Assembly: GCA_028821995.1 (NCBI GenBank)
Contig: JAPKEQ010000001.1
Location: forward strand, 5,620 to 69,619
Reading direction: 5' to 3'
DNA length: 64,000 bases
Source: Alphaproteobacteria bacterium
GTDB lineage: Bacteria; Pseudomonadota; Alphaproteobacteria; UBA2136; JAPKEQ01
In this document: in pieces, positions 33,161 to 63,620 of the stretch
Layout: every line of letters starts with the position of its first letter
Numbering within the stretch: the first letter of the stretch is position 1
Program-made: the position numbers and the translations under genes
Notes under the pieces: generated by a model
What the model saw: only the letters and a program-made list of their open reading frames with translations
What the model was told of the DNA's origin: nothing
Databases searched by the model: none

Positions 33161-35119
33161 ATGAGTGAGTCAATAGAATTATGCGCATTAAGAGAGGGGT
33201 ATTGGGACCTTATAAGTACTTACCCTCCCTCTCAAGAAGGTATCGCAATTAAAGAAGCTGCTAATATCCAAACAGGGTATGCGGCGGTTGCTGTGCTTTC
33301 TGTAGAAAAAATGCACATCGCTTATTACATTACACTTAGAAATATTCCCAAGCCTACATACTATGATATTAGAAAAAGTGTAAAAGCTGAACGTCCGACC
33401 ATGCGTCAAAAAACAAAACCTAAAAAAACTGCTAAACCTGAAAATTCTCAGCATACAACAACGTCAGCATCTGTAGAGAACACACCTAAACCTGTAGCCG
33501 CAGCATTAGAAGATACTCATGAGCTAAGCTTTTTTGAAAAACTTATCGATTCACTGTTTTATCTGCTTACAGGAAAACATGTGAAAGAAAGCCCTCACTC
33601 TAAAACACAAGAAAAAGAGAGCCGTGCAACTTCTGTTACCTCCCAAGATGAACAAACCTTATCAGGTGAACCGGTAACAGCTTCTCAACAAACAGAAGAA
33701 AGCACTCTTGAAAGCCTTCTAGAAACGCAACTTGAAGAAAAATTGGATGCCAATCCCCCCTCTGAAGAGGCAGTGCCAGATGAAGAGGAAATACCCGATA
33801 CAGCACAAGCACCTGATACACATGAAGAGACAAAGGCACCACAACCTCAAGCCGAAATTTCTGCTAAAAACCCTTTCAAAGCAAAGGAAGAGCATAAAAA
33901 CACTTCCAGCCCTCTTATGCAACCGCCAGAGCGCGAAAAGAAAAACGCTGCTCTTAAAAATACAAAGGCTAGCCTGCCCAAAATTGGAGGGGGACATATT
34001 CCAAACCCTTCAACTCCACAAAAATCACAAAGCACACAAGATACAGGCACAGCTTTTTGGAACAACATTGCAGAAGATGATGATGATTTTGAAAGCATAC
34101 GTCTTCAAATTCAAAAAAGCTTATTTGGAGCCATTGAACGCGCCAAGCAGCTGGCCTGGCTACCAGAACAAAGCACAATGCGTGGCACACTACAGCTTGC
34201 ATCTATTCTTCTTATTTGCGGTATTGGTAGAAAACTTTGCTCTCATGTTGGCGTCCCTGGTGGGCTTGGCAATCAAGTCATTGCAGATACACTTGAGCAA
34301 CTCGGCCTTTCTGATAAGCAAGCTTTTATCTGCGCACTCCACGTAGATCGAATACTCAGCGATCATAAAAACAACCTCATGTATCTTATTGGCCGCGCCT
34401 ACGGAGCCAACATTTTAAACGACACGGAGCAGCGCATTGACTTGCTCAGTATTTTTAACGCATGGGAAGCTAACGAACTTGAAAAATATTTTGACGTTGA
34501 TGAAGAAAAAAACACAGCTAAACTATCTAAACTGCCTTATCTAAAAGCAATTTCTATTCTCCTTACTGACATTGTGAACTTCACAGGTCAAAGCAATGAA
34601 AAAGGTGAAAAATGGGTTAAAGATGTTGTACATGCCCATAACCGCATGACAAAAACAATAACAGTCCATCAAAAAGGAGAGTATATCCAAGGAACTGGTG
34701 ATGGCGCCCTCCTTATTTTCACATCACCCCAAGCTGCAATGCATGCCGCCCTGGAGCTTCAATTTATGCATCAAAATTTCTGCAGGCGTGTGGCAAGTAG
34801 ACATTTTGATATTAGAGTTGCCGTAAGCCACGGTATTCCTATTCAAACACAGTCAGGTTTGCATGGTCCTCCTATTGAAGAGCTACATATGATCCATAAA
34901 GAAATGGGTGATATTGGCATTGCTGTAACAAAGGGCATAGCAAATATTGCAGAGCAACACGGGTTCCAATTTAATTTAAACGAAGAGACAGCCTTCCCCA
35001 TTTATGAATTTACAACATACACAGGAGCTCATACAGTAAGCGACAAAGACCAGACAAAAGAACAACACGCTGAAACTCCCGCAGAGAAGATGCAAGAAGA
35101 AGGACAACAACACGTATGA
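33161..35119 (+). CDS. Class III nucleotidyl cyclase-domain protein A: novel N-terminal domain, long acidic low-complexity linker, C-terminal cyclase domain that appears degenerate
   Basis: C-terminal LLTDIVNFTG...GEYIQGTGDGALLIF...FDIRVAVSHGIP matches the class III cyclase homology domain. The GxxVNxAAR transition-state motif is absent. Residues 80-300 are E/P/Q/T-rich. Confidence 0.8.
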   Translation: MSESIELCALREGYWDLISTYPPSQEGIAIKEAANIQTGYAAVAVLSVEKMHIAYYITLRNIPKPTYYDIRKSVKAERPTMRQKTKPKKTAKPENSQHTTTSASVENTPKPVAAALEDTHELSFFEKLIDSLFYLLTGKHVKESPHSKTQEKESRATSVTSQDEQTLSGEPVTASQQTEESTLESLLETQLEEKLDANPPSEEAVPDEEEIPDTAQAPDTHEETKAPQPQAEISAKNPFKAKEEHKNTSSPLMQPPEREKKNAALKNTKASLPKIGGGHIPNPSTPQKSQSTQDTGTAFWNNIAEDDDDFESIRLQIQKSLFGAIERAKQLAWLPEQSTMRGTLQLASILLICGIGRKLCSHVGVPGGLGNQVIADTLEQLGLSDKQAFICALHVDRILSDHKNNLMYLIGRAYGANILNDTEQRIDLLSIFNAWEANELEKYFDVDEEKNTAKLSKLPYLKAISILLTDIVNFTGQSNEKGEKWVKDVVHAHNRMTKTITVHQKGEYIQGTGDGALLIFTSPQAAMHAALELQFMHQNFCRRVASRHFDIRVAVSHGIPIQTQSGLHGPPIEELHMIHKEMGDIGIAVTKGIANIAEQHGFQFNLNEETAFPIYEFTTYTGAHTVSDKDQTKEQHAETPAEKMQEEGQQHV

Positions 35120-36624
35120 GCATTGACCTCTGCATTTTAAGACAAGGCGCTTGGGAAATTCATTCTACTTACTCTCCGGGAGAGTCAGAAAAAGCCGTAC
35201 AAGATGCCATTCGCTACAAGCAAGAAAAAGCCTACACTGGCGTTGTTGTTATTGATGATAGAACAAAGAGCGTTTTATACGGCTATACATCTTCTGGAAA
35301 ACCAGCATTTGACACAGTGGTAAAAAGCCTTAAAGAAGGCAAAAAAAACCTACGTGTTCAAAGCATGCAAACAAACATGAAAAACAAACCTGCAAAACAA
35401 GCCGCAAGCCCAAGCACCCCAAACCCAATCCAAACCAACAGCAAGCTTAACTCTGTCATGAGCGTGAGTATGCTATCTCTCATTATTGCCGTTACCATTT
35501 TTATGGTTCTACTCAACGTATTTAATGATCTTACCTCAGCACTTGTTGGCGCTATTTTTACAGCGGTATCGGCACTTATTGCATTTAAAATAGCAAATTT
35601 TGACCCCAGCACATCCATTGAAACTGTCGCTAAAATTGTTGCTACAAAAATGCACATCGGAGCTTCTGCCGAAGCACTTGATATGGAAAATGACAACTTA
35701 AGCATTAAAGATCACATTCAAAATGTTGTAGATTCCGCCGTACAAGGGGTTTGGAATGAAGAGCAAGAAGAAGCACCAAAAGAATCTGCGCTTGGCATTA
35801 TTCTTTTATGCTCTGGCGTCATAGAACATATCCACCAGGCACAAAACTACAAACGTCTTGTACTTATTGAAATGGCGAGCGATATCATTGAAGACTCTAA
35901 ATTCTCAATTCCCAAAGCAAGCACTGTCGCTTGCTACAAAAACATACTTGAATACCTTGCCTATCCTCGTTATTCCAGCATGTACGACATGGGGTATCAA
36001 CTTTCTAAAAAATTCAGCGCTAGCAAGGATACTGAAACCCTTAACTTGCAGGTTAGCCAAGCTTTTGAAGCTTGGTCCTCTCATCAAGATGTCACAGCAA
36101 GCCACAATGCGGCCGCAGCCATTTTATTTACAGATATTGTAGATTTTACATCCACACATCAGGACCGTGGAGATAACTGGATGATGCGCATATTAAACGC
36201 GCATAACGATGCCGTACGCGAAGGCCTCCATGTTACTGGCGGACGGGAAATTAAACACACAGGAGATGGCATCATGGCATCCTTCCAGTCTGTTAAAGAT
36301 GCCCTTGATGCTGCTATTGTTGCACAACGTAAAATTAATGAATTTAACATTGCCCATGAATCTGAGCGCTTTGAAGTACGTGTCGGCATTAGCTATGGAG
36401 AGCCTGTACACATCGGAGGTGACCTTTTTGGGACACCTGTAAATAAGGCCGCTCGCGTTCTTTCTAATACTCATGGAGAAGAAATTGCAATGTCTTCAGA
36501 AGCCTGGCTTGAAGCAAAGAGCTACGGATATACTGCAAAAGAAACAACTGGGGTTGAATTCAAAGGATTTGATGGCATTCACAGCCTCTTTAAGATCAAT
36601 TGGAAAGAGGCTGAGCAAAGCTGA
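35116..36624 (+). CDS. Class III adenylate/guanylate cyclase B (paralog of A): shared N-terminal domain, TM segment(s), intact cyclase domain
   Basis: ILFTDIVDFTS...IKHTGDGIMASF...FEVRVGISYGEPVHIGGDLFGTPVNKAARV carries all class III catalytic motifs. Its start overlaps the stop of A by 4 bp. Confidence 0.88.
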   Translation: MSIDLCILRQGAWEIHSTYSPGESEKAVQDAIRYKQEKAYTGVVVIDDRTKSVLYGYTSSGKPAFDTVVKSLKEGKKNLRVQSMQTNMKNKPAKQAASPSTPNPIQTNSKLNSVMSVSMLSLIIAVTIFMVLLNVFNDLTSALVGAIFTAVSALIAFKIANFDPSTSIETVAKIVATKMHIGASAEALDMENDNLSIKDHIQNVVDSAVQGVWNEEQEEAPKESALGIILLCSGVIEHIHQAQNYKRLVLIEMASDIIEDSKFSIPKASTVACYKNILEYLAYPRYSSMYDMGYQLSKKFSASKDTETLNLQVSQAFEAWSSHQDVTASHNAAAAILFTDIVDFTSTHQDRGDNWMMRILNAHNDAVREGLHVTGGREIKHTGDGIMASFQSVKDALDAAIVAQRKINEFNIAHESERFEVRVGISYGEPVHIGGDLFGTPVNKAARVLSNTHGEEIAMSSEAWLEAKSYGYTAKETTGVEFKGFDGIHSLFKINWKEAEQS

Positions 36625-49111: not shown

Positions 49112-49645
49112 ATGTCCCCTTCTACACGCGCATTTATGGTTTTGGTCCTTATTGCTGATTTTTTTGCCATTATTTATTTTGGCGGACACTTTGTTATTAC
49201 GGGTGCCGTCCTGCCACATAACGCTCATGCGGAAGAAAACATGATTGCCAAAGCCGAAGACCCTGGCAGCAGCGCTGACCACGGTATAAAGGTTGCTGAA
49301 GTCGCGCCTTTTGATATTCATACATTTGAAGCTGACGCTGCCAAAGGCGCTAAAATTTCTGGTAAATGTAAAGCTTGTCACAGCTTTAACAGCGGTGGTA
49401 AAAACTCAATTGGCCCGAACCTATGGGGTATTTTCAATTCACCTATTATGAATAATAGTACATTTTCTTACAGTGCGGCCTTCCAAGGTAAAAAAGGAGA
49501 GCTCGTCTGGGATAAAGATGCCCTTAATGACTACCTTAAAAATCCCAAGAAATATATTAAGGGTACAAAAATGGCCTTTCCTGGTATCAGAAAAGATGCA
49601 GATCGTGCCCATCTCATTGCATGGCTTGAGACACTGTCAGAATAA
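49112..49645 (+). CDS. Membrane-anchored mono-haem cytochrome c (CycM-like)
   Basis: N-terminal signal anchor and the CKACH haem-binding motif plus a Met ligand context (KMAFPGI). Confidence 0.85.
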   Translation: MSPSTRAFMVLVLIADFFAIIYFGGHFVITGAVLPHNAHAEENMIAKAEDPGSSADHGIKVAEVAPFDIHTFEADAAKGAKISGKCKACHSFNSGGKNSIGPNLWGIFNSPIMNNSTFSYSAAFQGKKGELVWDKDALNDYLKNPKKYIKGTKMAFPGIRKDADRAHLIAWLETLSE

Positions 49646-49665
49646 CCCCCTGACATAAAACAGGA

Positions 49666-49704
49666 AAAGGAATGTAACGACTCGTTACATTCCTTTTTTA
49701 TTTG
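49666..49704 (+). terminator. Rho-independent terminator with a perfect 11-bp palindromic stem
   Basis: ggaatgtaacgactcgttacattccttttttatttg. Confidence 0.8.
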
Positions 49705-49831
49705 CAAAACTATCACACAACATTGTTTTAATTGGTTTTTTTATTGGCTACATGTCTTTTTTTACTACATGTCAGTTACAATTAGAATGTAACGTCATAA
49801 TACAATGCAACTTATCGACTGGAGAAAAATT

Positions 49832-50401
49832 ATGTTGAGTTTAAAAAAATTTAAAAATCAAAAAGGTGCCATGTTTGGTCTAGATGCCCGTGTCGCCCTT
49901 GCAATTTTTGGTGGTCTTTCTGTTATTGCGGGTGCCGCAGTATTTAGTAGTATTAGTGAAACGCGTGTAACGTCACTTATCACAGAGTTTGATAACGTTT
50001 CAAAAGGTTACATCAACTACGTATTTGATACAGGTGTTGATACACTCACTTTTGACGACATGCTCGCTGACCCAGGTAACCCTGTTGTTGGTTGGTCTGG
50101 CCCATACCTAACAGTAGCCAGTGACAACCAAACAACATACGGCACTTACAGCTATGACGAAGGTCCGGATTCTGCTGGCGCAGACCCTACAAGTAACGCT
50201 TGCGCCACAATTTGCTATGTATGGCTAGAGCTTACTGGCGTTCCAACATCAATTGCCATTAGCGTTGATAACGCTATTGATGGAGATGATACACCTATAA
50301 CAGGTACACCAACAGCAGGTAATTTCCGATTCGTAGATACTGCAGGAACATCTGTAACACGCTTTAAACTATCTCGTTGCCAAACTGCAACCTGCGCATA
50401 A
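49832..50401 (+). CDS. Pilin-like protein (candidate major subunit). Basic leader ending in Gly, hydrophobic N-terminal helix, C-terminal Cys pairs
   Basis: MLSLKKFKNQKG|AMFGLDARVALAIFGGLSVIAGAAVF...NACATICYVW...SRCQTATCA. GGAG RBS 6 nt upstream. Followed by a hairpin. Confidence 0.6.
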   Translation: MLSLKKFKNQKGAMFGLDARVALAIFGGLSVIAGAAVFSSISETRVTSLITEFDNVSKGYINYVFDTGVDTLTFDDMLADPGNPVVGWSGPYLTVASDNQTTYGTYSYDEGPDSAGADPTSNACATICYVWLELTGVPTSIAISVDNAIDGDDTPITGTPTAGNFRFVDTAGTSVTRFKLSRCQTATCA

Positions 50402-50445
50402 TTTAAGCCTACCGCTTAAATTTGTGCTTATTTAGCAACGGCGAA

Positions 50446-50480
50446 AACGGCCTCGTAACATATGCGAGGCCGTTTTCATG
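50446..50480 (+). terminator. Terminator or attenuator hairpin after the pilin-like gene
   Basis: gaaaacggcctcgtaacatatgcgaggccgttttcatg: 12-bp perfect stem followed by UUUU. Confidence 0.6.
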
Positions 50481-50560
50481 TCTAATACACAGAGAAAGGT
50501 TGAGTTCTGCCCCTCTTCTTTGCCATAATGGAATATAAGAAAAAGAAAGCGATGTAATAG

Positions 50561-52258
50561 ATGGACATTGTCGATCTCATGATCAGTGATCAGGTGATCA
50601 ACATAGCAGACCTACAAGGTCTGCCTGTTACTGTGCAAAAAGATCCGGAACAACTTATTGATGCCCTTGGTAAGGCCGGTAAGCTTTCTGAGATGCAACA
50701 GTCTCGTTACAAAGCTATCGCTTATGATTACCCTGTCAGAACAGACGAAGAAATGTCCCGCACCACACCTCACCAAGTGGACGGGGTCAACGCTGACTTT
50801 ATGAATTTTTATACGGCCTGCCCTATTGAACTTGGGCGCGGTGCGATCACTTGGGCTTCCGCAGATTTACCAAACAAACGTCTACTGAGCGAAATTGTAC
50901 TCAGGCACCGTAAAAACAGGCACCAATTTGTATGGGCTTCTGCAAAGTCTATTGAATCTGCAATTGAGCGCATGTCTAAGCGTGAAGGGCACTCTCTCAA
51001 ATTCCTTGTAGAAACTGCCTATGCACAAATTAACGCGGGTAATGATGATGCAATTGTCCACCTTACTGATGAAATCATCAGAACAGCTTACAAAAACAAC
51101 GCATCAGATCTACACATTGAAATCTTGAACCGTAAACCTACGGTTATGGCGCGTATTGATGGTGAACTTGAAGAACTTGTACCGCTTCCTATTGAAGTTT
51201 ACGAGCGTGTTGTTGGTCGCTTACGTCACATGGCCGGTGTACGTGCTGAAAACTATAAAAAACCGCTCTACGGACGTATGACATTTGAACTTTCTGCTCG
51301 CCAGCATATTGATATTCGTTATACAACGCAGCCAATTACCCTTGAGAGCACGGCAAAAATTGCAATGCGTTTCCTAAAACCGTTTGAAGGTAGTATTGAT
51401 AACTTCGGTTGGCGTAAAGACAGTATTGGCAGGCTTGATGTTCTTATGCGCTTTGAGGAGGGATGTATTATTTTTGCAGGACCTACGGGTTCTGGTAAAT
51501 CAACAGGCGCACGTATGATTATTCGTCGCGGTCAACGCCCGGGTCAAAACGTAATTTCATACGAAAAGCAAATTGAGGAACGTATGGATAACGTAATCCA
51601 AACGGAAGAAGACCTTAGTGCAGGACTAAACCTTGAATCCTTCATGTATGCTGCACTTGGTCTTGACCCTGATGTTCTCTTTATTGGTGAGGTACGTAGC
51701 CCAGAAGATACGCGCCGATGCATTGATGCAGGTAACCTTGGTCACCTTGTTATTACAACCATGCACGCCAACGACACATTTATGACCCTTGACCGTCTTG
51801 TGCAGCGCGGTGTGCCTGTGGAGCAAATTTTCTCTAATGTTCGCGGCATTATCGCCCAAAGGCTCGTTAAAAGGCTCTGCAACAAATGTAAAGTTCCACT
51901 TGAACTTGATGCTGAATTTACGGAACAGCTGAATAGTTTACGCCCCCTTGATTTTAAAGAGGGTGACGTTATTTATAAAGCCAATGTTAATGGTTGTGAA
52001 CATTGCCGCCATAGAGGGTATATTGGCCGTATTGCTATCGAAGAAATTTTAGAGTTATGGCGTAAAGATATTACCCGCAACATTTGGACAAGCACAGCGC
52101 TTAGACCTGATTGGATTGATATTATCCGTAAGCAAGCTGTAGAAATTGGAATGCCTGATATGCTGACGCAGGGTATTTCTCAAGTAAAAACTGGGGTAAC
52201 ATCCCTTGAAGAACTAGAAAGATTTTTCAGTGCAGATTTGGAAACAATTCAGTCGTGA
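50561..52258 (+). CDS. GspE/PilB-family type II/IV secretion ATPase
   Basis: Walker A FAGPTGSGKST, Asp-box region DIRYTTQPITLESTAKIAMRFL, Walker B/His-box VLFIGEVRSPEDTRRCIDAGNLGHLVITTMHANDT, and a tetracysteine zinc motif CNKC...CEHCRHRGY. Confidence 0.88.
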   Translation: MDIVDLMISDQVINIADLQGLPVTVQKDPEQLIDALGKAGKLSEMQQSRYKAIAYDYPVRTDEEMSRTTPHQVDGVNADFMNFYTACPIELGRGAITWASADLPNKRLLSEIVLRHRKNRHQFVWASAKSIESAIERMSKREGHSLKFLVETAYAQINAGNDDAIVHLTDEIIRTAYKNNASDLHIEILNRKPTVMARIDGELEELVPLPIEVYERVVGRLRHMAGVRAENYKKPLYGRMTFELSARQHIDIRYTTQPITLESTAKIAMRFLKPFEGSIDNFGWRKDSIGRLDVLMRFEEGCIIFAGPTGSGKSTGARMIIRRGQRPGQNVISYEKQIEERMDNVIQTEEDLSAGLNLESFMYAALGLDPDVLFIGEVRSPEDTRRCIDAGNLGHLVITTMHANDTFMTLDRLVQRGVPVEQIFSNVRGIIAQRLVKRLCNKCKVPLELDAEFTEQLNSLRPLDFKEGDVIYKANVNGCEHCRHRGYIGRIAIEEILELWRKDITRNIWTSTALRPDWIDIIRKQAVEIGMPDMLTQGISQVKTGVTSLEELERFFSADLETIQS

Positions 52259-53324
52259 TGCTTTAGGCCCTCGGGTCACGGAAATGCGTGCACGCGACCG
52301 TGAACGCATGTTTTTCCTTATGTATCAAATGCTTAAATGTGGTCAAACCACAGAGTCAGCTGTGCGTGCCGTTGCAAAATCTTTTAGATCAGAAGGTAAA
52401 GAGGATATCTCTGCTGCACTTCATGCTATTGCTCAAAAAGTTGCCCAAGGAAAGCCTATGAGTAAATCCATGGAAATGGAATATGTTATGTTTGACGATG
52501 TTCACCGCGCCGCTGTTATGGCAGGGGAAGCCTCAAACTACATGACAGAATCTTTTCATATTTTACAAGTTTTAGAGGATAAAAAAATTGCAGCTTCGCG
52601 CGCTGGGTTGGCTGAACTCCTCACACCTATGCTTATGCTTTGCTTCAGTTTATTTTCTATTTTTAATACAGGCCTTAACACACTGCCTGTCCTTACACAG
52701 CTAAAAACTGCCCAAGGAAAAAAACTTGGCGTAGCACCACGCATGGTTATGGATATGACTGGTTGGTGCGCAGAGCACTGGCATATCCTCCTTGCAATCG
52801 GAATTACCCTTGCTGTGACAGCTTATGCAGGTATCAAATCAACCCAAGGACGATTCTGGTTAGATTACTACACCCTCCGCGTCCCTCTTATGGGTAAGTT
52901 TATCCGCTATAAAACCTATGCAAACATGCTGCTTTATTTTCCGCACCTTGTAGAAAGTGGCGTAAAACCAAAACAAATGATTCCAATCATGGAAGCCATG
53001 TCGACGAATATTGTGCTACGCCGTAAAATTGATGCTTTTAACCAAGTTATTACCACAGGTGGTAAAATGTCTGACGCTATGGAAAAAGCTGGATTCCCTG
53101 GCCTGATTGTAACGCCTATTCGTGTATCAGAAAATTATGCTGGTAGTGATACAGGGACCAACGATGTTATGATTGAAGGTATGAACCATGCTTACTCTAT
53201 CTTAGAACGAGACCTAACTGATACGCACAAACGCTTTATTGGCACGTTCTCGGTTATTTTATGGTTAATGGGTGGTGGCGTCATGCTACTTGAGATGATG
53301 TCAATTGTACTTGCACAGTCGTAG
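52230..53324 (+). CDS. GspF/PilC-family inner-membrane platform protein. Start uncertain (52230 or 52284)
   Basis: Two cytoplasmic helical domains separated by TMs. The second repeat (RVPLMGKFIRYKTYANMLLYFPHLVESGVKP...GFPGLIVTPIRVSENYAGSDTG...ILWLMGGGVMLLEMMSI) follows the T2SSF pattern. Confidence 0.75.
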   Translation: MQIWKQFSRDALGPRVTEMRARDRERMFFLMYQMLKCGQTTESAVRAVAKSFRSEGKEDISAALHAIAQKVAQGKPMSKSMEMEYVMFDDVHRAAVMAGEASNYMTESFHILQVLEDKKIAASRAGLAELLTPMLMLCFSLFSIFNTGLNTLPVLTQLKTAQGKKLGVAPRMVMDMTGWCAEHWHILLAIGITLAVTAYAGIKSTQGRFWLDYYTLRVPLMGKFIRYKTYANMLLYFPHLVESGVKPKQMIPIMEAMSTNIVLRRKIDAFNQVITTGGKMSDAMEKAGFPGLIVTPIRVSENYAGSDTGTNDVMIEGMNHAYSILERDLTDTHKRFIGTFSVILWLMGGGVMLLEMMSIVLAQS

Positions 53325-53336
53325 GAGAAAAAAAGC

Positions 53337-54497
53337 ATGCCTATGATTAAAAGCCTTCTCGGACAACAGTTTAAAAACATCTGTTTTACTGGTTTGAACC
53401 GTGTGGAATACTTACCTGATGGGTCTGACCAGCCTATTTTTGGGGATAGTTGGCAAGACGTATCTGATGATCAAGCTCGCCGTACAATGTGCCTCGCATT
53501 TTTTGCACCAAGAGATCTTTCAGGTGAACCTGTTGATCCCGCATCAATTCTTATTGAGAATTACTCTGATGAGGACGTTCCTGATGCTATAGCAGCAGAA
53601 AGCATTAAACATATTCCTCTTATGGATTATTGCCGTATGCCACCAGCTGACTCAAACACCGTAAACTTTATTGTTGTGGCAGATGTCATCTTCCATTGGG
53701 ATATTAAAGATAACTACTTGCAGCCCACATCCCAGCTTACATGGGTACAAGATATTAAGGCCATTTTAAAATCTTACCCAAGGAGTTACACTAAAAACGT
53801 TTATACTAACTGGCAAAAAGATAAGCTTGAAGAGCTTCGCGTTAATGTTCTTCCGCTGAGAGAATCTCCTGTTTTTAGTGAAGTTTGGCTTAACATGCCA
53901 TCCTTTCAAGAAAAACACGGTAATATTATGCTAACCTTAGGTATCTTGGTATCTCTTGTAGCCTTTGCAATCACCTACATGCAAGATATGAAGATCAAAG
54001 AACTGCAAGATCAAAAAAGATCTGTCGTTACCTCTATGCCATCAGGGCAAAACTATTCTGTCCTCTCAAATCTGATCCGCACGCAACAGCAAAACATGTC
54101 CTATAGAGAGTATTTCCCATTCATACTAAAAGATATTTCGTACGCCATCCAATATTCAGGTATGAAAATTGATTCATTTGAATTAGAGGTCCCAAACCCT
54201 CAGGAAGCGCCTAAAAATCTCCTGCTGACAATTAATGCCAATAGCGATGCTTATGATGGATGGCTTGAGGAAGAGCCTGTGGCCAAATCATTCCTTGCAC
54301 TTAGCAGTACTGTTCAAGCTGTAAGGCGTCAACCTGGAAGCAAGAAAATGAAACTTGAAGGTATTATTCCCCTCATGTCTGCCATAAAAGAGATTCACCC
54401 TTACTTGCAGGAAGCAAGAAAGACAAGAGCCATTGGCAACCGTACTCTTGGTAATACCTCAGAGGAAAAAAACAAAGAGACTGGAGATGACTCATGA
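53337..54497 (+). CDS. Hypothetical bitopic membrane protein (GspL or PilM-N-like topology: cytoplasmic domain, TM, periplasmic domain)
   Basis: Single TM near residue 195 (IMLTLGILVSLVAFAITYM). Assigned by position in the cluster and by topology only. Confidence 0.45.
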   Translation: MPMIKSLLGQQFKNICFTGLNRVEYLPDGSDQPIFGDSWQDVSDDQARRTMCLAFFAPRDLSGEPVDPASILIENYSDEDVPDAIAAESIKHIPLMDYCRMPPADSNTVNFIVVADVIFHWDIKDNYLQPTSQLTWVQDIKAILKSYPRSYTKNVYTNWQKDKLEELRVNVLPLRESPVFSEVWLNMPSFQEKHGNIMLTLGILVSLVAFAITYMQDMKIKELQDQKRSVVTSMPSGQNYSVLSNLIRTQQQNMSYREYFPFILKDISYAIQYSGMKIDSFELEVPNPQEAPKNLLLTINANSDAYDGWLEEEPVAKSFLALSSTVQAVRRQPGSKKMKLEGIIPLMSAIKEIHPYLQEARKTRAIGNRTLGNTSEEKNKETGDDS

Positions 54498-54991
54498 TTC
54501 AGTTTACAATAGGCCTTGCACTTTTTGCTTTTGCCGCAATTCTTGGCACTTTTAAATCGTTTGAAAACGTGGATAAAATTCAAGTGACCCAAAATAGCTT
54601 GCAAAGCTCCATGAGGGATAGAGATCGCATCCTAAAAATCCAAACGGATATTCAAAAAGCAGTACGTGAAACACTTGAAGCAGGACAGGATCAGAAAAAC
54701 AATATTGAACGATTGTTTAACCTTGCTGAAAGAGATTTAGAGTTTAGCTTCATTGGTCAGCCGACTCAAAACCCCGCTGCACCGGGAATTTTTTATCACA
54801 CCTACAGAATTACCGGCATTGAAACCTATTCTAAAATTTCAGAACTACTAACCCTTATCGCTTCAACTCCAGGGTTTTCTGTGTATAAAACATGTTTTAA
54901 CTGCTCAAGAGTAAGCCGCGAGCTCAAGCCTGGCCACCACATGATTACAATAGAAGGGCATCTATATGTTCATAACCCACGCCAGATTTAA
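54494..54991 (+). CDS. Hypothetical bitopic membrane protein (GspM/PilO-like topology)
   Basis: N-terminal TM (LALFAFAAILGTF) and a periplasmic domain of about 140 aa. Overlaps its neighbours by 4 and 26 bp. Confidence 0.45.
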   Translation: MIQFTIGLALFAFAAILGTFKSFENVDKIQVTQNSLQSSMRDRDRILKIQTDIQKAVRETLEAGQDQKNNIERLFNLAERDLEFSFIGQPTQNPAAPGIFYHTYRITGIETYSKISELLTLIASTPGFSVYKTCFNCSRVSRELKPGHHMITIEGHLYVHNPRQI

Positions 54992-56111
54992 ACTTGCCCT
55001 AACAGCTTGTGCTATTACTGTTGTGACGCCAAGCCATGGCCAAACTATTTCTTGGCCAGATACATTTACAGGCCAGCCAGATTTTGAGTTTACGCGCACA
55101 GATATTGTAAAAGAAATTCAAGAAAAAAGACCTGAATCATTCTCAATATTAACAGGAAACCTTGATCGATCTCTCAGTACACAAGGGGTTAACCCCTTTT
55201 CCCCTAAAACATCTCAAAACCTTATTGAGATATATAGTAGATATAACGAGAACGAATCTATTGCTATTGAGCGCAAGAAAAATCCGGTTCCGCAAGCATA
55301 CGTAGGCTCTAGGCATCAAATTTTCCTTAGAACAGGTGAAACCTCTGGCGCTAATATTATTTTAAAGGATGGAGAGGTCTTTGCCATGCTATCTAGCGGC
55401 AAAATTCTCCCTATTGAGCTCGCACCCAACAATACCATTGTGGAATACGTGGCTACAACACAGATTTCAAAAGAAGAAATTATTGACCAAAAATTCCAAG
55501 ATCTTTTTGCTGGAAAACGCCTGTTTTCTGATACATCTGTAAATTTAGAAGAAGTTGATAGCAGACTTGCAGGTCTACAAACATATCAAGCAGATGGACA
55601 ACTGCCTGATTTTTATACAGATTCTCAAGGACGCCTTGCTCCCACAGAGTTCAAGCGCTTTTTAGAGAGGCTTTTACGCCAAACGCTACAAAAAGAGCAA
55701 AAAAACCTTGGCTTACAAGATTTCTCTCAAGATATTAAAAAGATCAAAATTGACAGTATTGTAACCTCACCATTTAAGTATGCTGTACTAGACGGTGAAA
55801 AATACAGCGAAAAGGAACGATTTTTCCTTTCTGTTCAAAGGCCTCAAGGACAAAACACTAACTTTAGAGCCATTGTAGAGCAATACATACCCCCTAAAGA
55901 TTCTATGGATGCGGGCATGCACCAATCTTTCTTAAATGAAGCCAATGGTGTTATTGAGCAATACGAAAGAGAGCTTGGCATAGAAGCAGGCACTGCGACT
56001 CGTATGGCAACCCATAAGATAGGGGTAACAGTAAAAGAAATTGGCCACAGAAAAGTTATTTTAACAATTGGTGACAGGGATTACCCGCTTAAAATTAACT
56101 TGGCTCTATAA
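54966..56111 (+). CDS. Hypothetical periplasmic protein of the filament cluster (not a secretin)
   Basis: Signal peptide ALTACAITVVTPSHG. No secretin C-terminal motif. Confidence 0.45.
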   Translation: MFITHARFKLALTACAITVVTPSHGQTISWPDTFTGQPDFEFTRTDIVKEIQEKRPESFSILTGNLDRSLSTQGVNPFSPKTSQNLIEIYSRYNENESIAIERKKNPVPQAYVGSRHQIFLRTGETSGANIILKDGEVFAMLSSGKILPIELAPNNTIVEYVATTQISKEEIIDQKFQDLFAGKRLFSDTSVNLEEVDSRLAGLQTYQADGQLPDFYTDSQGRLAPTEFKRFLERLLRQTLQKEQKNLGLQDFSQDIKKIKIDSIVTSPFKYAVLDGEKYSEKERFFLSVQRPQGQNTNFRAIVEQYIPPKDSMDAGMHQSFLNEANGVIEQYERELGIEAGTATRMATHKIGVTVKEIGHRKVILTIGDRDYPLKINLAL

Positions 56112-56114
56112 GAG

Positions 56115-56873
56115 ATGATGAAAGCAAAGCAAAGAAAACAAATGAAAATATTATGTCAAAAGGGTGGCTTTTCGCCATTCATGTTTGGCGTTCTGGCTGC
56201 GCTCTCTATTTTTAGTACCATGCTTGCTCAATGGGCAAAAGAAGACCTAAAACAGCTACAAAGCGAAAAATTAAAACGCCAGCAAGCACACTCTGAAGAT
56301 ATTAAAGAAGCCATTGAAATAGCCATCCTTTCAGAGAACAGCAACGTAGCTGGAAATAATTACAGCCAAACTTATGATATTGGCCGCGCACAAGGGTTTC
56401 TTTCATCCTCAAACAACACGACGCGCGGTGGAGCTGCCATTCAAATGCAAGAAGTTGATAGTAGTCAGGTTCAAGATATTCAAAACAAACGTATTGCAAT
56501 CAGCTCATCAGATGACACATTTCTGCGTACTGACGTGGCAGGGCTTGCAAACGAAGATGCTATAGCAGCTTATGACAGCGGCCTTGATGGCGCTATGGCA
56601 ACAGTAGATACAGAAGCTTTACGTAACCAGCAAGTAAAGCACTCAAGGCAACTCTTAGAAAAAGAAGCAAGCTTGCTTTATACATTCTTTACAGAAAACA
56701 GCAGGTTTCCCGCCAATCAAGGCGAGTACGATACTGATATAAACGCATTAACAAATTACAAAGATACCTGGGGAAATGACTTTACCTACACCTATGCAAG
56801 CGATACCGAAGCAACATTAGGTTTTACCACACCGTGGGGGAAAAGCTTTAACGTTCGTGTGGATATGAACTAA
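56115..56873 (+). CDS. Pilin-like protein (candidate minor pilin), prepilin-type leader QKGG|FSPFMFGVLAALSIF
   Basis: Basic leader ending in GG, followed by a hydrophobic helix of about 20 aa lacking Glu5. The rest is polar. Confidence 0.5.
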   Translation: MMKAKQRKQMKILCQKGGFSPFMFGVLAALSIFSTMLAQWAKEDLKQLQSEKLKRQQAHSEDIKEAIEIAILSENSNVAGNNYSQTYDIGRAQGFLSSSNNTTRGGAAIQMQEVDSSQVQDIQNKRIAISSSDDTFLRTDVAGLANEDAIAAYDSGLDGAMATVDTEALRNQQVKHSRQLLEKEASLLYTFFTENSRFPANQGEYDTDINALTNYKDTWGNDFTYTYASDTEATLGFTTPWGKSFNVRVDMN

Positions 56874-56893
56874 GAAAAACAAAGGAAAATAAT

Positions 56894-57802
56894 ATGATAC
56901 GTGCCATTGCAAAACGCTTAAAAAGCCAAACAGGTGCTGTTTTTGGTATGGATGCCCGTGTGGCACTTATTATTGCAAGTATTATGGCTGCAACAGGTGG
57001 TGTAACCGTACTTTCTCGTGTTGAACGTAATAAAAACGATGCTGCTGAACGCGGTATTGATTTACTTGTGAACGCCAACCTGAAGTACTACATCACAACA
57101 GGTATTAATACCATATCTCCTGATATTGCGACCCTATTTACATCTGGCGTTATGGAAGAAACATACCTCCAACAAGACCCGTGGGGCAACAACTGGAACT
57201 ATGTGATTGGCTCTACAAATATTGAAATTGAAGATGTGCCTGTCACCATGTGGTACGGTACTATTCATACAAGCGGTAAAGATGGCACAGATGACTCTGT
57301 AGCTATTGCATCTTATGCGAACTGGCAAGTATGGGAAGCCGCAGGTGATGATATTGGTATCAAATTTTCAACCACATCTATTGAAAAAGATCGCGTGGAG
57401 CTTTACAGAAAGCAAGGCCAAGAGATTTCTGACCGTCTCGCAGCTGTAGAAGCTGCATGGTACCTTGATGCAGATGGCGCTTGCACTGGCCCTGCGTGGT
57501 GTACAAGTGGTGGTAAATCTTACACAAACTTTAGTTACTATCCAATTTCTAGCCTTGATGCCAATGTCAACGTACAATATTTTGATGCTGTTTGTACCGA
57601 CACTGATATTGCAGGAACAACCAGCGCCTGTAATGATGTGACATACATAAGCGGGAACCAAGGCTCAATGGAAGCGCTATTAAACTTGCTTAACCTGCCC
57701 ATTAGCTATGCAACAGACCCTTGGAATCGCACTTTAAGGTATAACTCAAACCTAACAGACCGCGAAGATCCACCATTTAGCGCTCAGGTTTGGTATCAAT
57801 AA
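56894..57802 (+). CDS. Pilin-like protein sharing the N-terminal motif of the 49832 gene
   Basis: MIRAIAKRLKSQTG|AVFGMDARVALIIASIMAATGGVTVL, then Cys-containing C-terminal region (ACTGPAWCTSGG...AVCTDTDIAGTTSAC). Confidence 0.55.
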   Translation: MIRAIAKRLKSQTGAVFGMDARVALIIASIMAATGGVTVLSRVERNKNDAAERGIDLLVNANLKYYITTGINTISPDIATLFTSGVMEETYLQQDPWGNNWNYVIGSTNIEIEDVPVTMWYGTIHTSGKDGTDDSVAIASYANWQVWEAAGDDIGIKFSTTSIEKDRVELYRKQGQEISDRLAAVEAAWYLDADGACTGPAWCTSGGKSYTNFSYYPISSLDANVNVQYFDAVCTDTDIAGTTSACNDVTYISGNQGSMEALLNLLNLPISYATDPWNRTLRYNSNLTDREDPPFSAQVWYQ

Positions 57803-57805
57803 ACA

Positions 57806-58417
57806 GTGTTTGCATTTGAAAGACAGTTTCTCACAGAGGATGATATTTCTGAGGGGTTAATCCCAGAAAAGTTCCATATTATCCTTACAGGGCTGTTTTT
57901 TCTTATCTTTGGTGCACTGAGCCTTGCAAGCATAGCAACAGCAATGGAGTGCCTTTTTTGGGGGATAACAAGCCTTGTTTTAGCAAGGCTTATTGCCCTA
58001 GACCTTACAAACCATACACTTCCCAACATTTATATTGCTCCTCTATGTTGCTTTGCACTTATTGGGAGCCTTACAGGCATGCTTCCAATCACATGGCAAG
58101 ATGCTCTCTTTGGCGGAGCTATCGCATTCTCAAGCGTTCTTGCTCTTAGTTTTCTTATTGAATTTTTATTAAAATCTGCCTTTCTTGGCGGAGGAGATAT
58201 AAAATTCATAGGCGCATCAGGCCTTTGGCTAGGTTGGGGGCTTTTACCTTTTTACATGATGGTTGCCTGCTTTTTCACAATTATCATTTCTTTCCTCCCC
58301 AGTAAAAACAATCATATCGCCTTTGGCCCAGGGCTTTGCTTCTCTTTATGGCTGTTTTTGCATCAAAAAACTTACTTGATGGTCTTGATAAACAAGGCAT
58401 TTGCCTTTATATCTTGA
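57806..58417 (+). CDS. Prepilin peptidase, peptidase A24 family, short TadV/CpaA-like form (GTG start)
   Basis: Polytopic 203 aa with the second catalytic Asp motif LGGGDIKFIGASGLWLGW (A24 GxGDxKL). No N-terminal Zn-finger or methyltransferase region. Confidence 0.75.
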   Translation: MFAFERQFLTEDDISEGLIPEKFHIILTGLFFLIFGALSLASIATAMECLFWGITSLVLARLIALDLTNHTLPNIYIAPLCCFALIGSLTGMLPITWQDALFGGAIAFSSVLALSFLIEFLLKSAFLGGGDIKFIGASGLWLGWGLLPFYMMVACFFTIIISFLPSKNNHIAFGPGLCFSLWLFLHQKTYLMVLINKAFAFIS

Positions 58418-58420
58418 AGT

Positions 58421-58966
58421 ATGACCGAAATATGTGCCCATCCAGACTGCGAGCTTGAAGGAACTTTTCCTGCCCCTAGAGACCCTAGCAACATATCTGC
58501 GCGCCAATATTTCTGCGAAAAACACATCAAAGAATTCAATAAAAACTGGAACGGCCTTAAAGGCTTTAGCAGTGACGACCTTTACACCTTACAGTCTGGT
58601 GCCACATGGGGACGTCCAACGTGGAAAATGGGTGTAAACACAGAATCCTACAAAAAGGCAACCCTTGCAGCTGACAAGAATTACAAAAACCCATACACCC
58701 TATTTGGTGATATGGATGAGGACCAAGCAACCACTACATTTACGCCTAAAATGCCAAAAAAAATTACTGAAGCCTGCGAAACATTAGGCATAGAGCCACC
58801 ACTCACGCCTCATATTATTAAAAAGCGCTTCACAGTTCTTGCTAAGAAATTTCACCCAGATATTTATACGGGGGATGATGCTGCCGAACGTATGGGTATT
58901 ATTAATGATGCCTATACAACGCTTAAAGACTACCTTAAACGCCAAGAAGCAGAAGCTAAAGGCTAA
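58421..58966 (+). CDS. J-domain protein with an N-terminal Cys/His-rich segment
   Basis: C-terminal IIKKRFTVLAKKFHPDIYTGDDAAERMGIINDAYTTLKDYLK (HPD motif). N-terminal CAHPDCELEG...FCEKH. Confidence 0.65.
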   Translation: MTEICAHPDCELEGTFPAPRDPSNISARQYFCEKHIKEFNKNWNGLKGFSSDDLYTLQSGATWGRPTWKMGVNTESYKKATLAADKNYKNPYTLFGDMDEDQATTTFTPKMPKKITEACETLGIEPPLTPHIIKKRFTVLAKKFHPDIYTGDDAAERMGIINDAYTTLKDYLKRQEAEAKG

Positions 58967-59657
58967 AGAAACGCTCTACTGCTGCCATATCTCCGCGCTC
59001 TAAGTAACTTAAAACAACTTGCTGTTTTGTTAAAACTTGCATGCGGTGCTCTTCAACAGCCATACGCTTAACGCAGTAACCATAGGTTTGTGAAAGAAGC
59101 TGCTCTAAAACCTGAGCCAAAACAGCGTTTCCAGACTCCTTTGCAAGAGAAACCCTCCATCCATGTTCTTTTTCCACTAATTTTTCAGGGGAATCCGTCA
59201 AGTAAATCTCATGAGAAATTATAAGATTTAGCAAGTTTCGAGGAGATTTTTTAAGAGGGAGGTAAGCTGTATAAACAAGACCCTTAATGACTCTTAAAGC
59301 ATCTTCATAGTCATTTTCTGCAAGGCCTGAAATCTTCAATGTAGCCGTTTCTGTAGGTATCAGAGGCCGGGAAGCCTTCACGAAAGAGCCGCGCCCTGGA
59401 GAAACATCTAAATATCCATGCGCCCTTAAAATTTGCATAGACTCACGCAAAGTAGATCTGCTTACAGAAAAATACTTACATAACTGATGCTCTGTTGGAA
59501 GCTTGTCCCCAACTTTTAATGCCCCCCTCGCTATCATACCCTTAAAATGTTCTGCCATAGATTCAGAAAGACGCATGCCTGGATTTTCATTTACTGGTTC
59601 CAAGAAAAGATTTTCTGGGGCATTGCCATTCCGTGTAGGAGAGAAGTGCGGTTCCAT
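58956..59657 (-). CDS. GntR-family (FadR/FCD subfamily) transcriptional regulator
   Basis: N-terminal wHTH (DKLPTEHQLCKYFSVSRSTLRESMQILRAHGYLDVSPGRGSFV) and a C-terminal FCD-like helical domain. Confidence 0.85.
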   Translation of the reverse strand: MEPHFSPTRNGNAPENLFLEPVNENPGMRLSESMAEHFKGMIARGALKVGDKLPTEHQLCKYFSVSRSTLRESMQILRAHGYLDVSPGRGSFVKASRPLIPTETATLKISGLAENDYEDALRVIKGLVYTAYLPLKKSPRNLLNLIISHEIYLTDSPEKLVEKEHGWRVSLAKESGNAVLAQVLEQLLSQTYGYCVKRMAVEEHRMQVLTKQQVVLSYLERGDMAAVERFFSL

Positions 59658-59742
59658 ATAGGCATCCTATTTTTTGTACTACTTTTAATATCTAAATATC
59701 AGACTAGCACAACCTAAAATAGAATTAAACAAAAATATAAAC

Positions 59743-60546
59743 TTATAAAGAAAGCTCCTCTGAGCGATCTCTTGCATGCAAGAGCGCATCAAAAACAATC
59801 CTATCAAACTGATTTTTATTAAAAATGTTCAAAGCAGCCTCTGTTGTCCCCCCTTTACTTGTTACCTCTTCTTTAAGTTGTAAAGGGTATTTTCCGCACT
59901 GCATTTGCTTCACCGCAAGGCCACCTGCCCCCCTTGCTGTCTCGCAAGCAAGCTCTCTTGCAAGATTTTCTGGAAGCCCCAAAGCCTTCCCAGCTTTTAT
60001 CATGTAATCCATAAGAGCAAAGAAGTATGCGGGCCCACTTCCAGATACCGCAGTTACGGCATGCATTTGCGCCTCATCTTGCACCCAAAAAACTTTTCCA
60101 ACAGCTTGCAGAACATCTTCGCAAAAAAGCTTTGTCGCTTCAGGGCAGTTTTTATCACCCACTAAAACGCTCACGCCCATACCAATGGCCGCCGGCGTAT
60201 TGGGCATTGCACGCACTACATGCATGGCATGGCTCACATGCTTAGAAATTGAAACGCGCTCAACGCCTGCCATAATAGAGAGTACAACGCCTTCCGGCTT
60301 CATAATACCTGCAAGGTCCTTGTATATCTTTTCTGCAATTTGCGGCTTTACAGCAAGAATAACCATATCGAATTTTTGCTCAATATCTTTTGCATCCTTA
60401 TATAAGGTTACACCCTCTACAGGGCTACCCTGCTCATAAAAATACGGATCTATCGCTTCAATCTTATAAAGCCCTCTTTTCTCCAGCAAACCACTTGCAA
60501 TGGCTTGCCCCATATTGCCAAACCCAAAAAATAAAATCTTTTTCAT
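59743..60546 (-). CDS. proC: Pyrroline-5-carboxylate reductase
   Basis: MKKILFFGFGNMGQAIASGL Rossmann N-terminus and the C-terminal P5CR dimerisation signature (VTSKGGTTEAAL). Confidence 0.92.
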   Translation of the reverse strand: MKKILFFGFGNMGQAIASGLLEKRGLYKIEAIDPYFYEQGSPVEGVTLYKDAKDIEQKFDMVILAVKPQIAEKIYKDLAGIMKPEGVVLSIMAGVERVSISKHVSHAMHVVRAMPNTPAAIGMGVSVLVGDKNCPEATKLFCEDVLQAVGKVFWVQDEAQMHAVTAVSGSGPAYFFALMDYMIKAGKALGLPENLARELACETARGAGGLAVKQMQCGKYPLQLKEEVTSKGGTTEAALNIFNKNQFDRIVFDALLHARDRSEELSL

Positions 60547-62570: not shown

Positions 62571-63620
62571 ATGATGAAAGATTTGATTATACAGCGCATT
62601 AAGGACCGCGGTCCTCTCAATGTTGCGGATTACATGTCCCTTTGTCTCTACGAGCCCAATCACGGCTACTACATGACACGCGATCCTTTCGGCAATGCAG
62701 GCGATTTTACAACAGCACCTGAGATGACTCAGCTGTTTGGTGAAATGGTGGGCATTTGGGTCATTGATCTATGGCAAAAACTAGGATGTCCAGAACCTTT
62801 CCACCTTGTAGAAGCAGGACCTGGGCGCGGCACACTCATGAAAGATGTTTTACGCACACTTCAAAAAGTGCGTAGCACATGCTACGCAAATGCCAAAGTA
62901 CACCTTGTTGAAATTAGCCCGCACCTTAAATCTATTCAAATGGACACGCTTGACGATCATGATGACGTGGCATGGACAAGCAATATTGAAGATATTGATT
63001 TTGACGCGCCAGTAATCCTTATTGGTAATGAAGTACTAGACGCTTTCCCTGTTCGCCAATTCCAAAAAACGGAAGATGGCTACAAAGAACGCATTATCGA
63101 ACTCAATGAAAATAAGCTTTCTTACGCAACAAGTGATAGGTCTTACACCTTCCATAATACAGATGCAGAGTTTATTGAAACTTACGACGCCATGGAAAAA
63201 TTCCTCCGCAGTGTTAAACGTTCTATTAAAAAAGGCGCAGCTCTCTTTATTGACTACGGGGCAATGAGCGGCCATGCGGATACGCTGCAAGCTCTCTCTA
63301 AACACCAAACCGTTGATGTACTTGATAACCCTGGCGGCGCAGACCTAACAACCCATGTAAACTTTGGCTTTGTCGCTGATATCTTTGGCTCTAACACCCT
63401 TGGCCCAACAGATCTAGGATACTTCCTTACCCAAATGGGGCTGCCGATTCGCGCTGCAACACTTCTGGAAAATACTGAAGGTACAGAACGTGAAAACTTA
63501 CAAGCTGCAATACACAGATTGATACACCCCAGCCAAATGGGAAGCCTCTTTAAAGTCCTTTGCTGGCGCACACAGGGCGTCCCGGACCCAGCAGGTTTTC
63601 AGAATACCTTCTTCCAATAA
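62571..63620 (+). CDS. Class I SAM-dependent methyltransferase, MidA/NDUFAF7 family (COG1565, DUF185)
   Basis: HLVEAGPGRGTLMKDVL SAM-binding motif and the typical length. Confidence 0.8.
   Translation: MMKDLIIQRIKDRGPLNVADYMSLCLYEPNHGYYMTRDPFGNAGDFTTAPEMTQLFGEMVGIWVIDLWQKLGCPEPFHLVEAGPGRGTLMKDVLRTLQKVRSTCYANAKVHLVEISPHLKSIQMDTLDDHDDVAWTSNIEDIDFDAPVILIGNEVLDAFPVRQFQKTEDGYKERIIELNENKLSYATSDRSYTFHNTDAEFIETYDAMEKFLRSVKRSIKKGAALFIDYGAMSGHADTLQALSKHQTVDVLDNPGGADLTTHVNFGFVADIFGSNTLGPTDLGYFLTQMGLPIRAATLLENTEGTERENLQAAIHRLIHPSQMGSLFKVLCWRTQGVPDPAGFQNTFFQ

Follow-up and report, generated by a model that had tools for sequence, protein, structure and literature searches.

The 64-kb window (the whole stretch of 64,000 nucleotides analysed here, from contig JAPKEQ010000001.1 of assembly GCA_028821995.1) contained a cluster of ten genes, including a prepilin peptidase of the A24 family, an assembly ATPase, an inner-membrane platform protein and three pilin-like proteins. 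A preliminary description of the peptidase gene had presented it as a TadV/CpaA-type enzyme encoded with a GspE/GspF-type motor. Our verdict is that it represents a new subfamily of A24 peptidases, linked to an uncharacterised type IV filament variant that is abundant in metagenomes. The gene in question was as follows:

57806..58417, forward strand: single-domain A24 prepilin peptidase, 203 residues, GTG start, catalytic residues D66 and D131, seven predicted helices

The 203-residue open reading frame (ORF) matched the Pfam family PF01478 (Peptidase_A24) over residues 56–162 (E = 3.3e-12; score 47.2 bits, gathering score 26.5). The first catalytic aspartate, Asp1, was D66 (context ALDLTNHTLP, ARLIALDLTNHTLP), and the second, Asp2, was D131, within the GGGD motif of FLGGGDIKF. 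Both were located by alignment and were unchanged across 7 close homologues and across 45 subfamily members. Of 144 aligned A24 representatives, nearly all had an Asp pair that matched D66 and D131 in position; the first Asp was absent from four. The short A24 peptidase of the preliminary description was therefore real. Its reported lack of the cytoplasmic Zn-finger/methylase domain was borne out as well, since a Pfam search of the ORF gave no match to PF06750 (A24_N_bact) and no CxxC motif preceded Asp1. No NCBIfam model matched the peptidase. A profile built from 150 diverse A24 sequences found this gene to be the sole A24 ORF in the window. A second canonical pilD, which the preliminary description had named as a possible partner of the cluster, was thus absent from the 64 kb, and the rest of the genome lay beyond view.

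Six close homologues, with 62–99% identity, were found in a search of 5.8 billion proteins. Where full length, they had 203 residues and the N-terminus MFAFERQFLTE in common, which was kept down to the homologues of 62–68% identity. The reading frame was shut upstream by a TAA at 57800–57802, which is the stop codon of the conserved pilin-like gene of 302 residues in the same frame. Therefore, a PilD-like N-domain cannot hide upstream, as had been considered for a frameshifted or misassembled gene. The GTG start shared this frame and lay 3 nt past the stop codon (window 57803–57808), and no Shine-Dalgarno sequence was evident before it. Automatic gene calls skipped the peptidase in locus L048 (14459–15067) and cut it to 190 residues in locus L002 (9962–10573) and in NCBI MEC9291360.1. 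On direct translation, the L048 gene was intact.

The AlphaFold2 (AF2) model of the peptidase, built with 45 subfamily sequences, had a pLDDT of 95.5 and a pTM of 0.90. It was composed of seven long helices, with which the hydropathy peaks agreed, and residues 1–20 were also modelled confidently. On this model, the peptidase is predicted to be a polytopic inner-membrane protein. A PDB sequence search with the single peptidase query gave no match, and a search with the peptidase profile matched only FlaK (E = 5.4e-4). When the AF2 model was compared with the PDB by using Foldseek, nothing significant was found and FlaK ranked third (E = 1.3, TM-score about 0.4); this null result is in keeping with a library lacking any PilD-type structure and was uninformative for classification. 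The archaeal peptidases FlaK and PibD (PDB code 3S0X) belong to the same GxGD aspartyl protease fold family, and their substrates are not methylated, as is predicted for those of the peptidase described here. However, the match was remote and confined to the region around Asp2, and the extra domains differ.

The relatives of the peptidase were collected by an exhaustive profile search of 1.84 billion representatives, which gave 2,174 matches. Among them, at least 45 representatives at 50% identity, of 183–216 residues, aligned with the peptidase over its full length and formed a subfamily with the N-terminal motif M-[FW]-x-[FLI]-E-[KR]-x-[FWY]-[VLI]...[DE]-[ILM]-x-x-G-x-[LI]-P, which reads MFAFERQF...EGLIPEKF in the window. 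Residues Glu5, Arg61, Asp66, Tyr76, Gly128, Asp131, and Gly174 were invariant in the 45 members. No member had a CxxC motif before Asp1; the single CxxC, at position 150 of P0013, falls after Asp2. The subfamily formed one clade in an unbootstrapped neighbour-joining tree. The matches ranked below it were PilD-like proteins of 240–300 residues with two CxxC motifs, mixed with assorted proteins without them.

Two reference enzymes were used to place the subfamily. The GspO reference was taken from the Escherichia marmotae type II secretion system (T2SS)-beta operon (sslE-pppA-gspS-gspC...M), in which GspO/PppA has 269 residues with PF06750 and PF01478; this control matched PF06750 at E = 3.2e-33. 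The CpaA reference was CpaA2 of Sinorhizobium meliloti pSymA, which has 176 residues and adjoins cpaB (RcpC), cpaE (AAA_31/TadE), cpaF (T2SSE) and tadB/tadC. The cpa2 locus was verified by Pfam, with one T2SSF domain each in tadB and tadC. The hidden Markov model (HMM) of the subfamily gave GspO/PppA 80.5 bits (HMM positions 29–189), whereas CpaA2 scored 9–11 bits. In a tblastn search of 72,556 plasmids, the only match of the peptidase was the E. marmotae GspO/PppA, and a short A24 representative, P0060, gave no match.

The alignment was consistent with these scores. Residues 17–65 of the peptidase paired with the end of the GspO Zn-finger loop (IPEKFHIIL against ISKRYPLVE) and with two helices before Asp1. 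These two helices, equivalent to the second and third transmembrane (TM) helices, and a juxtamembrane I-x-x-[KR]-[YF] segment were shared by the peptidase and PilD/GspO but not by CpaA2; only one pre-Asp1 helix was present in CpaA2 and other very short A24 proteins. The peptidase also shared with PilD, GspO and PppA an Asp1 in an xDLxxxxLPD-like motif, an Asp2 in GxGD and a PFGP motif near the C-terminus, and it is likewise paired with a PilB/GspE ATPase and a GspF/PilC platform. The two Asp residues were 65 residues apart, as in GspO, and about 60 apart in CpaA2. As a marker of architecture, this spacing failed, since nearly all of the top 150 matches had 63–68 and only CpaA2 differed. In contrast to PilD, GspO and PppA, which have about 250–290 residues, the peptidase had neither the first TM helix (TM1) nor the four-Cys Zn-finger loop, carried the family N-terminal motif instead, and presumably has no methyltransferase activity. 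The TadV, CpaA and FppA enzymes are likewise short, single-domain A24 peptidases without a methylase domain, but they were very distant in sequence, as judged from the one reference, CpaA2. Among the type IVb pili, the short PilU of R64 is a precedent.

The peptidase is therefore best read, from its sequence, as a PilD/GspO-type core without TM1 and the Zn finger, and the TadV/CpaA-type label of the preliminary description does not fit. The best explanation of the N-terminal motif is that the subfamily gained a conserved cytoplasmic N-terminus of 20 residues. The enzyme looks like a lineage-specific reduction of a PilD-type peptidase that was kept with its own system and not like a recruit to a foreign motor.

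The genomic surroundings of A24 genes in metagenomes were scanned with a nine-sequence alignment and the pattern GGGDxK, which gave 37 loci. The A24 genes outside the subfamily mostly coded for 250–295 residues with two CxxC motifs. The ATPases near the A24 genes of these loci, where present, were PilB/GspE-like and never CpaF-like. A second, unrelated group of short PilD-like A24 proteins, with 217 residues and no CxxC, was seen in L019 (9683–10336), L022, L026, L030 and L039; a PilT-sized T2SSE ATPase lay about 3 kb off where the locus was long enough. Loss of the Zn finger thus seems to have occurred more than once.

The other genes of the cluster, which were tightly packed from 50561 to 58966 with overlaps or gaps of a few bases, were as follows (a slash marks the predicted cleavage site):

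49805..50401, forward strand: major pilin-like protein, 198-residue ORF, likely start M10 (49832), signal KNQKG/AMFGLDARVALAIFGGLSVIAG
50561..52258, forward strand: assembly ATPase of the PilB/GspE type, 565 residues, T2SSE match at E = 4e-67, weak MshEN N-domain, C-terminal CxxC...CxxC
52230..53324, forward strand: inner-membrane platform protein of the GspF/PilC type, 364-residue ORF (346 residues by gene callers in related loci), T2SSF match at E = 2.2e-14
53337..54497, forward strand: GspL-like bitopic protein, 386 residues, cytoplasmic domain, one TM helix and periplasmic ferredoxin-like domain, no Pfam match
54494..54991, forward strand: small bitopic protein, 165 residues, N-terminal TM helix
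54966..56111, forward strand: periplasmic protein with a Sec signal, 381 residues, N-terminal WPxTFxGQPDFEF and C-terminal domain conserved, middle variable
56115..56873, forward strand: minor pilin-like protein, 252 residues, signal CQKG/GFSPFMFGVLAAL, no acidic residue near +5
56894..57802, forward strand: large pilin-like protein, 302 residues, signal SQTG/AVFGMDARVALIIAS, DPWGN motifs
58421..58966, forward strand: J-domain protein, 181 residues, DnaJ match at E = 3.9e-10, N-terminal Cys/His motif (CAHPDCE...FCEKH), 3-nt gap after the peptidase gene

The motor was assigned by both its ATPase and its platform. The NCBIfam scores of the ATPase were 246 bits for PilB, 235 for GspE (cutoff 630), 95 for PilT and 17.6 for the TadA family, all below the cutoffs, and its best PDB sequences were PilB and GspE at 170 and 165 bits, followed by BfpD (76) and PilT (65). 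The best NCBIfam model for the platform was GspF, with 92.9 bits against a cutoff of 424, and the protein matched PilC (3jc8) at E = 5.5e-7. The peptidase was thus encoded with a PilB/GspE- and GspF-type motor, as the preliminary description had stated. Over 393 ungapped columns, the ATPase was 26–29% identical to the GspE of E. marmotae and to four PilB-like ATPases encoded near PilD-like genes; these five were 41–46% identical among themselves. The identity of the ATPase was 20% to CpaF and 70–82% within its own family. When a small neighbour-joining tree was rooted on CpaF, this ATPase family branched outside the PilB and GspE group. With few references and no branch support, this tree is suggestive of a motor that may stand apart from both.

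Each of the three pilin-like proteins began with a basic leader that closed with Q-[KTR]-G, and a stretch of about 21 hydrophobic residues came next. As far as the Gly, this leader resembles that of a canonical type IVa pilus (T4aP)/T2SS prepilin (..QKG/F..). The mature end was different: Ala1 was found in place of Phe1, and Leu5-Asp6-Ala7-Arg8 in place of Glu5. A profile of the 198-residue protein gave 827 homologue clusters at E ≤ 0.01 (clusters of 90% identity). Among the best 120 of these, 117 carried [RK][SN]Q[RK]G/A[ML]FG[LM]DAR[IV][AT]L, 119 were without any Pfam domain, and none had a known pilin domain; the names given by their sources were few and mostly "hypothetical protein". When the full text of the literature was searched for FGLDAR, the one paper retrieved was unrelated. 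The 198-residue protein had a W-x-G-P-Y motif, and W-G-x-x-Y motifs, which we take to be of the kind found in GspG-type pseudopilins, occurred in the pilin-like proteins. That the 198-residue protein is a pilin is suggested by its leader and hydrophobic stretch, by its W-x-G-P-Y motif and by its place in the genome. In a distant relative, L050 (12505–15792), the pilin part was expanded, with a minor-pilin homologue of 391 residues containing Lcl_C (PF07603) and two large-pilin paralogues of 343 and 346 residues.

The 386-residue protein was modelled by AF2 with a pLDDT of 85.9. By Foldseek, its C-terminal half matched PilO (3jc8_Oa, 2rjz), and its N-terminal half matched the cytoplasmic domain of GspL/EpsL in four independent entries (4pht_Y, 1w97, 1yf5, 5tkw), with E-values from 3e-3 to 5.5e-2 and probabilities of 0.66–0.99. 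The protein is called GspL-like because these matches were weak but consistent; an hhalign comparison with a single GspL sequence gave no significant match. Its family had 49 homologue clusters, and every name given by the sources was "hypothetical protein". The 165-residue protein may be GspM/PilO-like by position and architecture, and no significant family match was found for it; an NCBIfam match to BasF, with 20.7 bits against a cutoff of 1300, was meaningless. For the 381-residue protein, neither Pfam nor a PDB profile search gave a match, nor did hhalign with a single-sequence GspC template, and its role as a GspC/PilP-like connector is a guess. A lipoprotein reading of this protein (LTAC) was rejected, since the Cys was not conserved. 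Its middle segment of about 100 residues was missing in several lineages, in which the protein had 270–310 residues (L009, 7178–8098; L050, 11606–12445; L051, 7388–8200; L053, 4592–5413).

Membership in the canonical systems was examined by Pfam and NCBIfam. No Pfam match was found for six of the ten cluster proteins (198, 386, 165, 381, 252 and 302 residues), the ATPase and platform were far below every NCBIfam equivalog cutoff, and no secretin, PilT, PilMNOPQ, GspC or GspH–K was recognisable in the cluster or in the window. Flp, TadE, TadF, TadZ/CpaE, TadA/CpaF and TadB/C were absent from the cluster. The cluster is therefore not a canonical T2SS or T4aP, and on this point the preliminary description held. 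Nor is it a canonical Tad system. Its likeness to the T2SS and to T4aP/MSH systems consisted of the PilB/GspE-type ATPase with a C-terminal tetracysteine, the GspF-type platform, a candidate fused GspL-like protein, several pilin-like proteins and an operon-encoded peptidase. It differed from them in the missing components, in the ATPase identity of 26–29% and in the pilin N-terminus, AMFGLDAR here against F-T-L-I-E. From Tad it differed in the single platform gene of the GspF/PilC type and in the ATPase scores.

When the cluster was compared among related genomes, the order pilin, ATPase, platform, protein of about 380 residues, protein of about 165 residues, periplasmic protein, minor pilin, large pilin and peptidase was identical wherever the locus was complete. 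Nine distinct lineages were read: the window, L001 (GCA_035092205.1), L002 (a Logan assembly), L009 (a 1.78-Mb contig), L010 (Tara Oceans), L048 (GCA_035092365.1), L050 (GCA_021774615.1), L051 and L053. The contig of L001 began just before the ATPase, with the first pilin gene off its end. The peptidase was the last of the nine genes in all nine lineages, and a locus of 97% identity was found in a metagenome-assembled genome (MAG). The genes of the operon differed strikingly in their conservation. A comparison of the window with L009 and L010 gave identities of 75–78% for the ATPase, 64% for the platform and 31–38% for the peptidase (38% for L009 and 31–32% for L010); the peptidases of L051 and L053 were 29% and 34% identical to that of the window, respectively. 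Between the window and L001, the ATPase was 96% and the peptidase 68% identical.

The J-domain gene directly followed the peptidase gene in L001, L002, L010, L048, L050, L051 and L053, and no homologue was found in L009 by phmmer. Its membership in the system is uncertain, and conserved synteny of the whole neighbourhood could explain the adjacency. The flanks were conserved across loci (a DjlA-like gene, cytochrome c, GntR, proC and lgt), which indicates vertical inheritance of the cluster. The rest of the window was housekeeping in character (SecA, LigA, RecN, Suf genes, EF-G and Lgt), and the presence of OmpA and of BamD, the latter from our own reading of its translation, indicates a diderm host. 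The carriers of the cluster are best explained as a clade of uncultured, mostly marine, alphaproteobacteria-like bacteria.

From these comparisons, we consider the enzyme likely to be dedicated to one system, an undescribed type IV filament machine, which it would serve as a class III signal peptidase with peptidase activity only, leaving its substrates unmethylated. As a GxGD aspartyl protease, it would act with D66 and D131 at the cytoplasmic face of the membrane. The candidate substrates with a Q-[KRT]-G signal lie in the same operon, and in each of these three pilin-like proteins, cleavage would fall after the conserved Gly that ends [RK][SN]Q[RK]G/. Processing would leave AMFGLDAR..., AVFGMDAR... 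and GFSPFMFG... as the mature N-termini. The pilins may then be built into a filament by the PilB/GspE-type ATPase together with the GspF-type platform and the GspL-like protein. Such a system would work like the assembly platform of the T2SS and type IV pili, with the GspM-like and GspC/PilP-like proteins as candidate parts.

N-methylation of the substrates by the peptidase is most likely lacking, a prediction made because the Zn-finger domain is missing. Reviews ascribe N-methylation to IPR010627, a Zn-binding domain that is the likely methylase (PMC4471445; PMC10191384, with reference to Aly et al. 2013). They describe the prepilin peptidases of bacterial PilB/GspE-type systems as having two domains, and they mention enzymes that lack the methylase domain, "such as in T4cP" (type IVc pili) (PMC10191384). 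Glu5 matters for methylation and assembly (PMC4471445; PMC10191384), and both Phe1 and Glu5 have been linked with methylation as well as with membrane extraction of the pilin (PMC4471445; PMC10128026). The absence of methylation fits substrates with Ala at +1 and with Asp6 and Arg8 in place of Glu5. In this family, the missing methylase domain and the missing Phe1/Glu5 go together. A PilD-derived enzyme appears to have lost its methylase domain independently while its substrates lost Phe1 and Glu5. This natural pairing could serve to probe the purpose of N-methylation and of Glu5, a question that has been described as open for more than 40 years (PMC10191384).

Several observations weigh against this assignment. 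The case for descent from PilD is built on profile scores, a single CpaA reference and a neighbour-joining tree without bootstrap values, and published trees of prepilin peptidases are poorly resolved (PMC6668835). The pilin-like proteins had no significant match to known pilins in Pfam, in the PDB (profile search with the pilin alignment) or by hhalign of the pilin family against single-sequence GspG–K templates, so their pilin nature rests on motif and context. All three contained a second Gly, in an xMFG/[LMV] motif, which is an alternative cleavage site. Furthermore, a canonical PilD elsewhere in the genome, beyond the visible 64 kb, could also act on the pilins.

The pairing itself has been explained differently. 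According to the preliminary description, the pairing is mixed, which corresponds to a TadV/CpaA-type peptidase of type IVc pili recruited into a GspE/GspF-type system to give a chimeric cluster. The short length and the missing methylase domain agree with such an origin, as does the choice of T4cP in reviews to illustrate peptidases of this kind (PMC10191384). We nevertheless regard it as very improbable. CpaA2 was barely recognised by the profile that gave GspO 80.5 bits, and its one pre-Asp1 helix and spacing of about 60 contrast with the two helices and the GspO-like spacing of the peptidase. The Tad partners (TadA/CpaF, TadB/C, CpaE, TadE, Flp) are not in the cluster, the substrate motif is not the G/xxxxEY of Flp, and no related A24 gene was found beside a CpaF-type ATPase, the metagenomic relatives adjoining PilB-like ones. 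The mixed pairing was also put forward as the clearest sign of a non-canonical system. An argument from the peptidase by itself is weak in principle, because prepilin peptidases are exchangeable between systems and their tree is poorly resolved (Denise et al., PMC6668835); stronger signs lie in the N-terminus of the pilins, in the divergence of the motor and in accessory proteins that are not recognisable. Still less credible is an artefact or a decaying gene, that is, a full-length pilD truncated by a frameshift, a misassembly or a wrong start. The mishandling by gene callers (no call in L048; 190 residues in L002 and MEC9291360.1) and the GTG start without an obvious Shine-Dalgarno sequence could point that way, but at least 45 representatives at 50% identity share the length of 183–216 residues and the N-terminal motif, the upstream DNA codes for the conserved 302-residue protein right to its stop, the L048 gene is intact, and the whole chain including residues 1–20 was confidently modelled.

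A more serious alternative, though an unlikely one, is that the cluster is a divergent T2SS building an endopilus, with the secretin and other parts encoded elsewhere and with the peptidase as an unusual GspO. The GspL-like protein, GspF as the best platform model and the GspG-like W-G-x-x-Y motifs of the pilins are in line with it. The diderm host (BamD, OmpA, and Lgt from the precomputed Pfam of a homologous gene) would need an outer-membrane channel, and the gspD of a T2SS may lie at a distance from its other genes (PMC6668835). However, the ATPase was 26% identical to GspE, which is below the 41–46% between GspE and the PilB-like ATPases; no GspH/I/J/K set, GspC or GspD was recognisable in the cluster or the window; the pilins were without Phe1 and Glu5; and all scores were far below the NCBIfam T2SS cutoffs. 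A dedicated peptidase of a separate filament machine thus remains our preferred assignment. A bolder proposal, which we hold tentatively and with somewhat more doubt than belief, is that this machine is a separate type IV filament subtype of the rank of MSH, the type IVb pili (T4bP) or the T2SS. Its motor would lie outside PilB and GspE, its pilins would be unmethylated with Asp6/Arg8 replacing Glu5, its peptidase would have shed the methylase in step, and it would be confined to a deep-branching lineage of marine, uncultured, alphaproteobacteria-like bacteria. If so, the link between Glu5, N-methylation and the extraction or assembly of pilins would be directly testable.

In metagenomes the system was common: its pilins made up at least 827 clusters at 90% identity. 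Where the sources gave names, the accessory proteins and most pilins were listed as "hypothetical protein". The system is probably overlooked, or labelled "generic", by current annotation and by models of the TXSScan type, and gene callers often truncate or skip its peptidase gene.

Minor observations were made in the rest of the window. An Rfam scan found nothing, and a scan for promoters and terminators was uninformative. Terminator-like hairpins in 49500–59800 numbered 21, against 9.6 ± 2.8 expected from shuffles, and most were inside coding sequence. A Methyltransf_28 (NDUFAF7-like) methyltransferase gene at 62571–63620, 4 kb downstream, was syntenic in all relatives according to precomputed Pfam. 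This was the only methyltransferase gene near the cluster and is probably unrelated to pilin modification. Two tandem, overlapping paralogues (33161–35119 and 35116–36624) resembled each other in their N-terminal regions, and each carried a class III adenylate/guanylate cyclase domain (PF00211) at the C-terminus, with E-values of 6e-5 and 1.4e-15, respectively.

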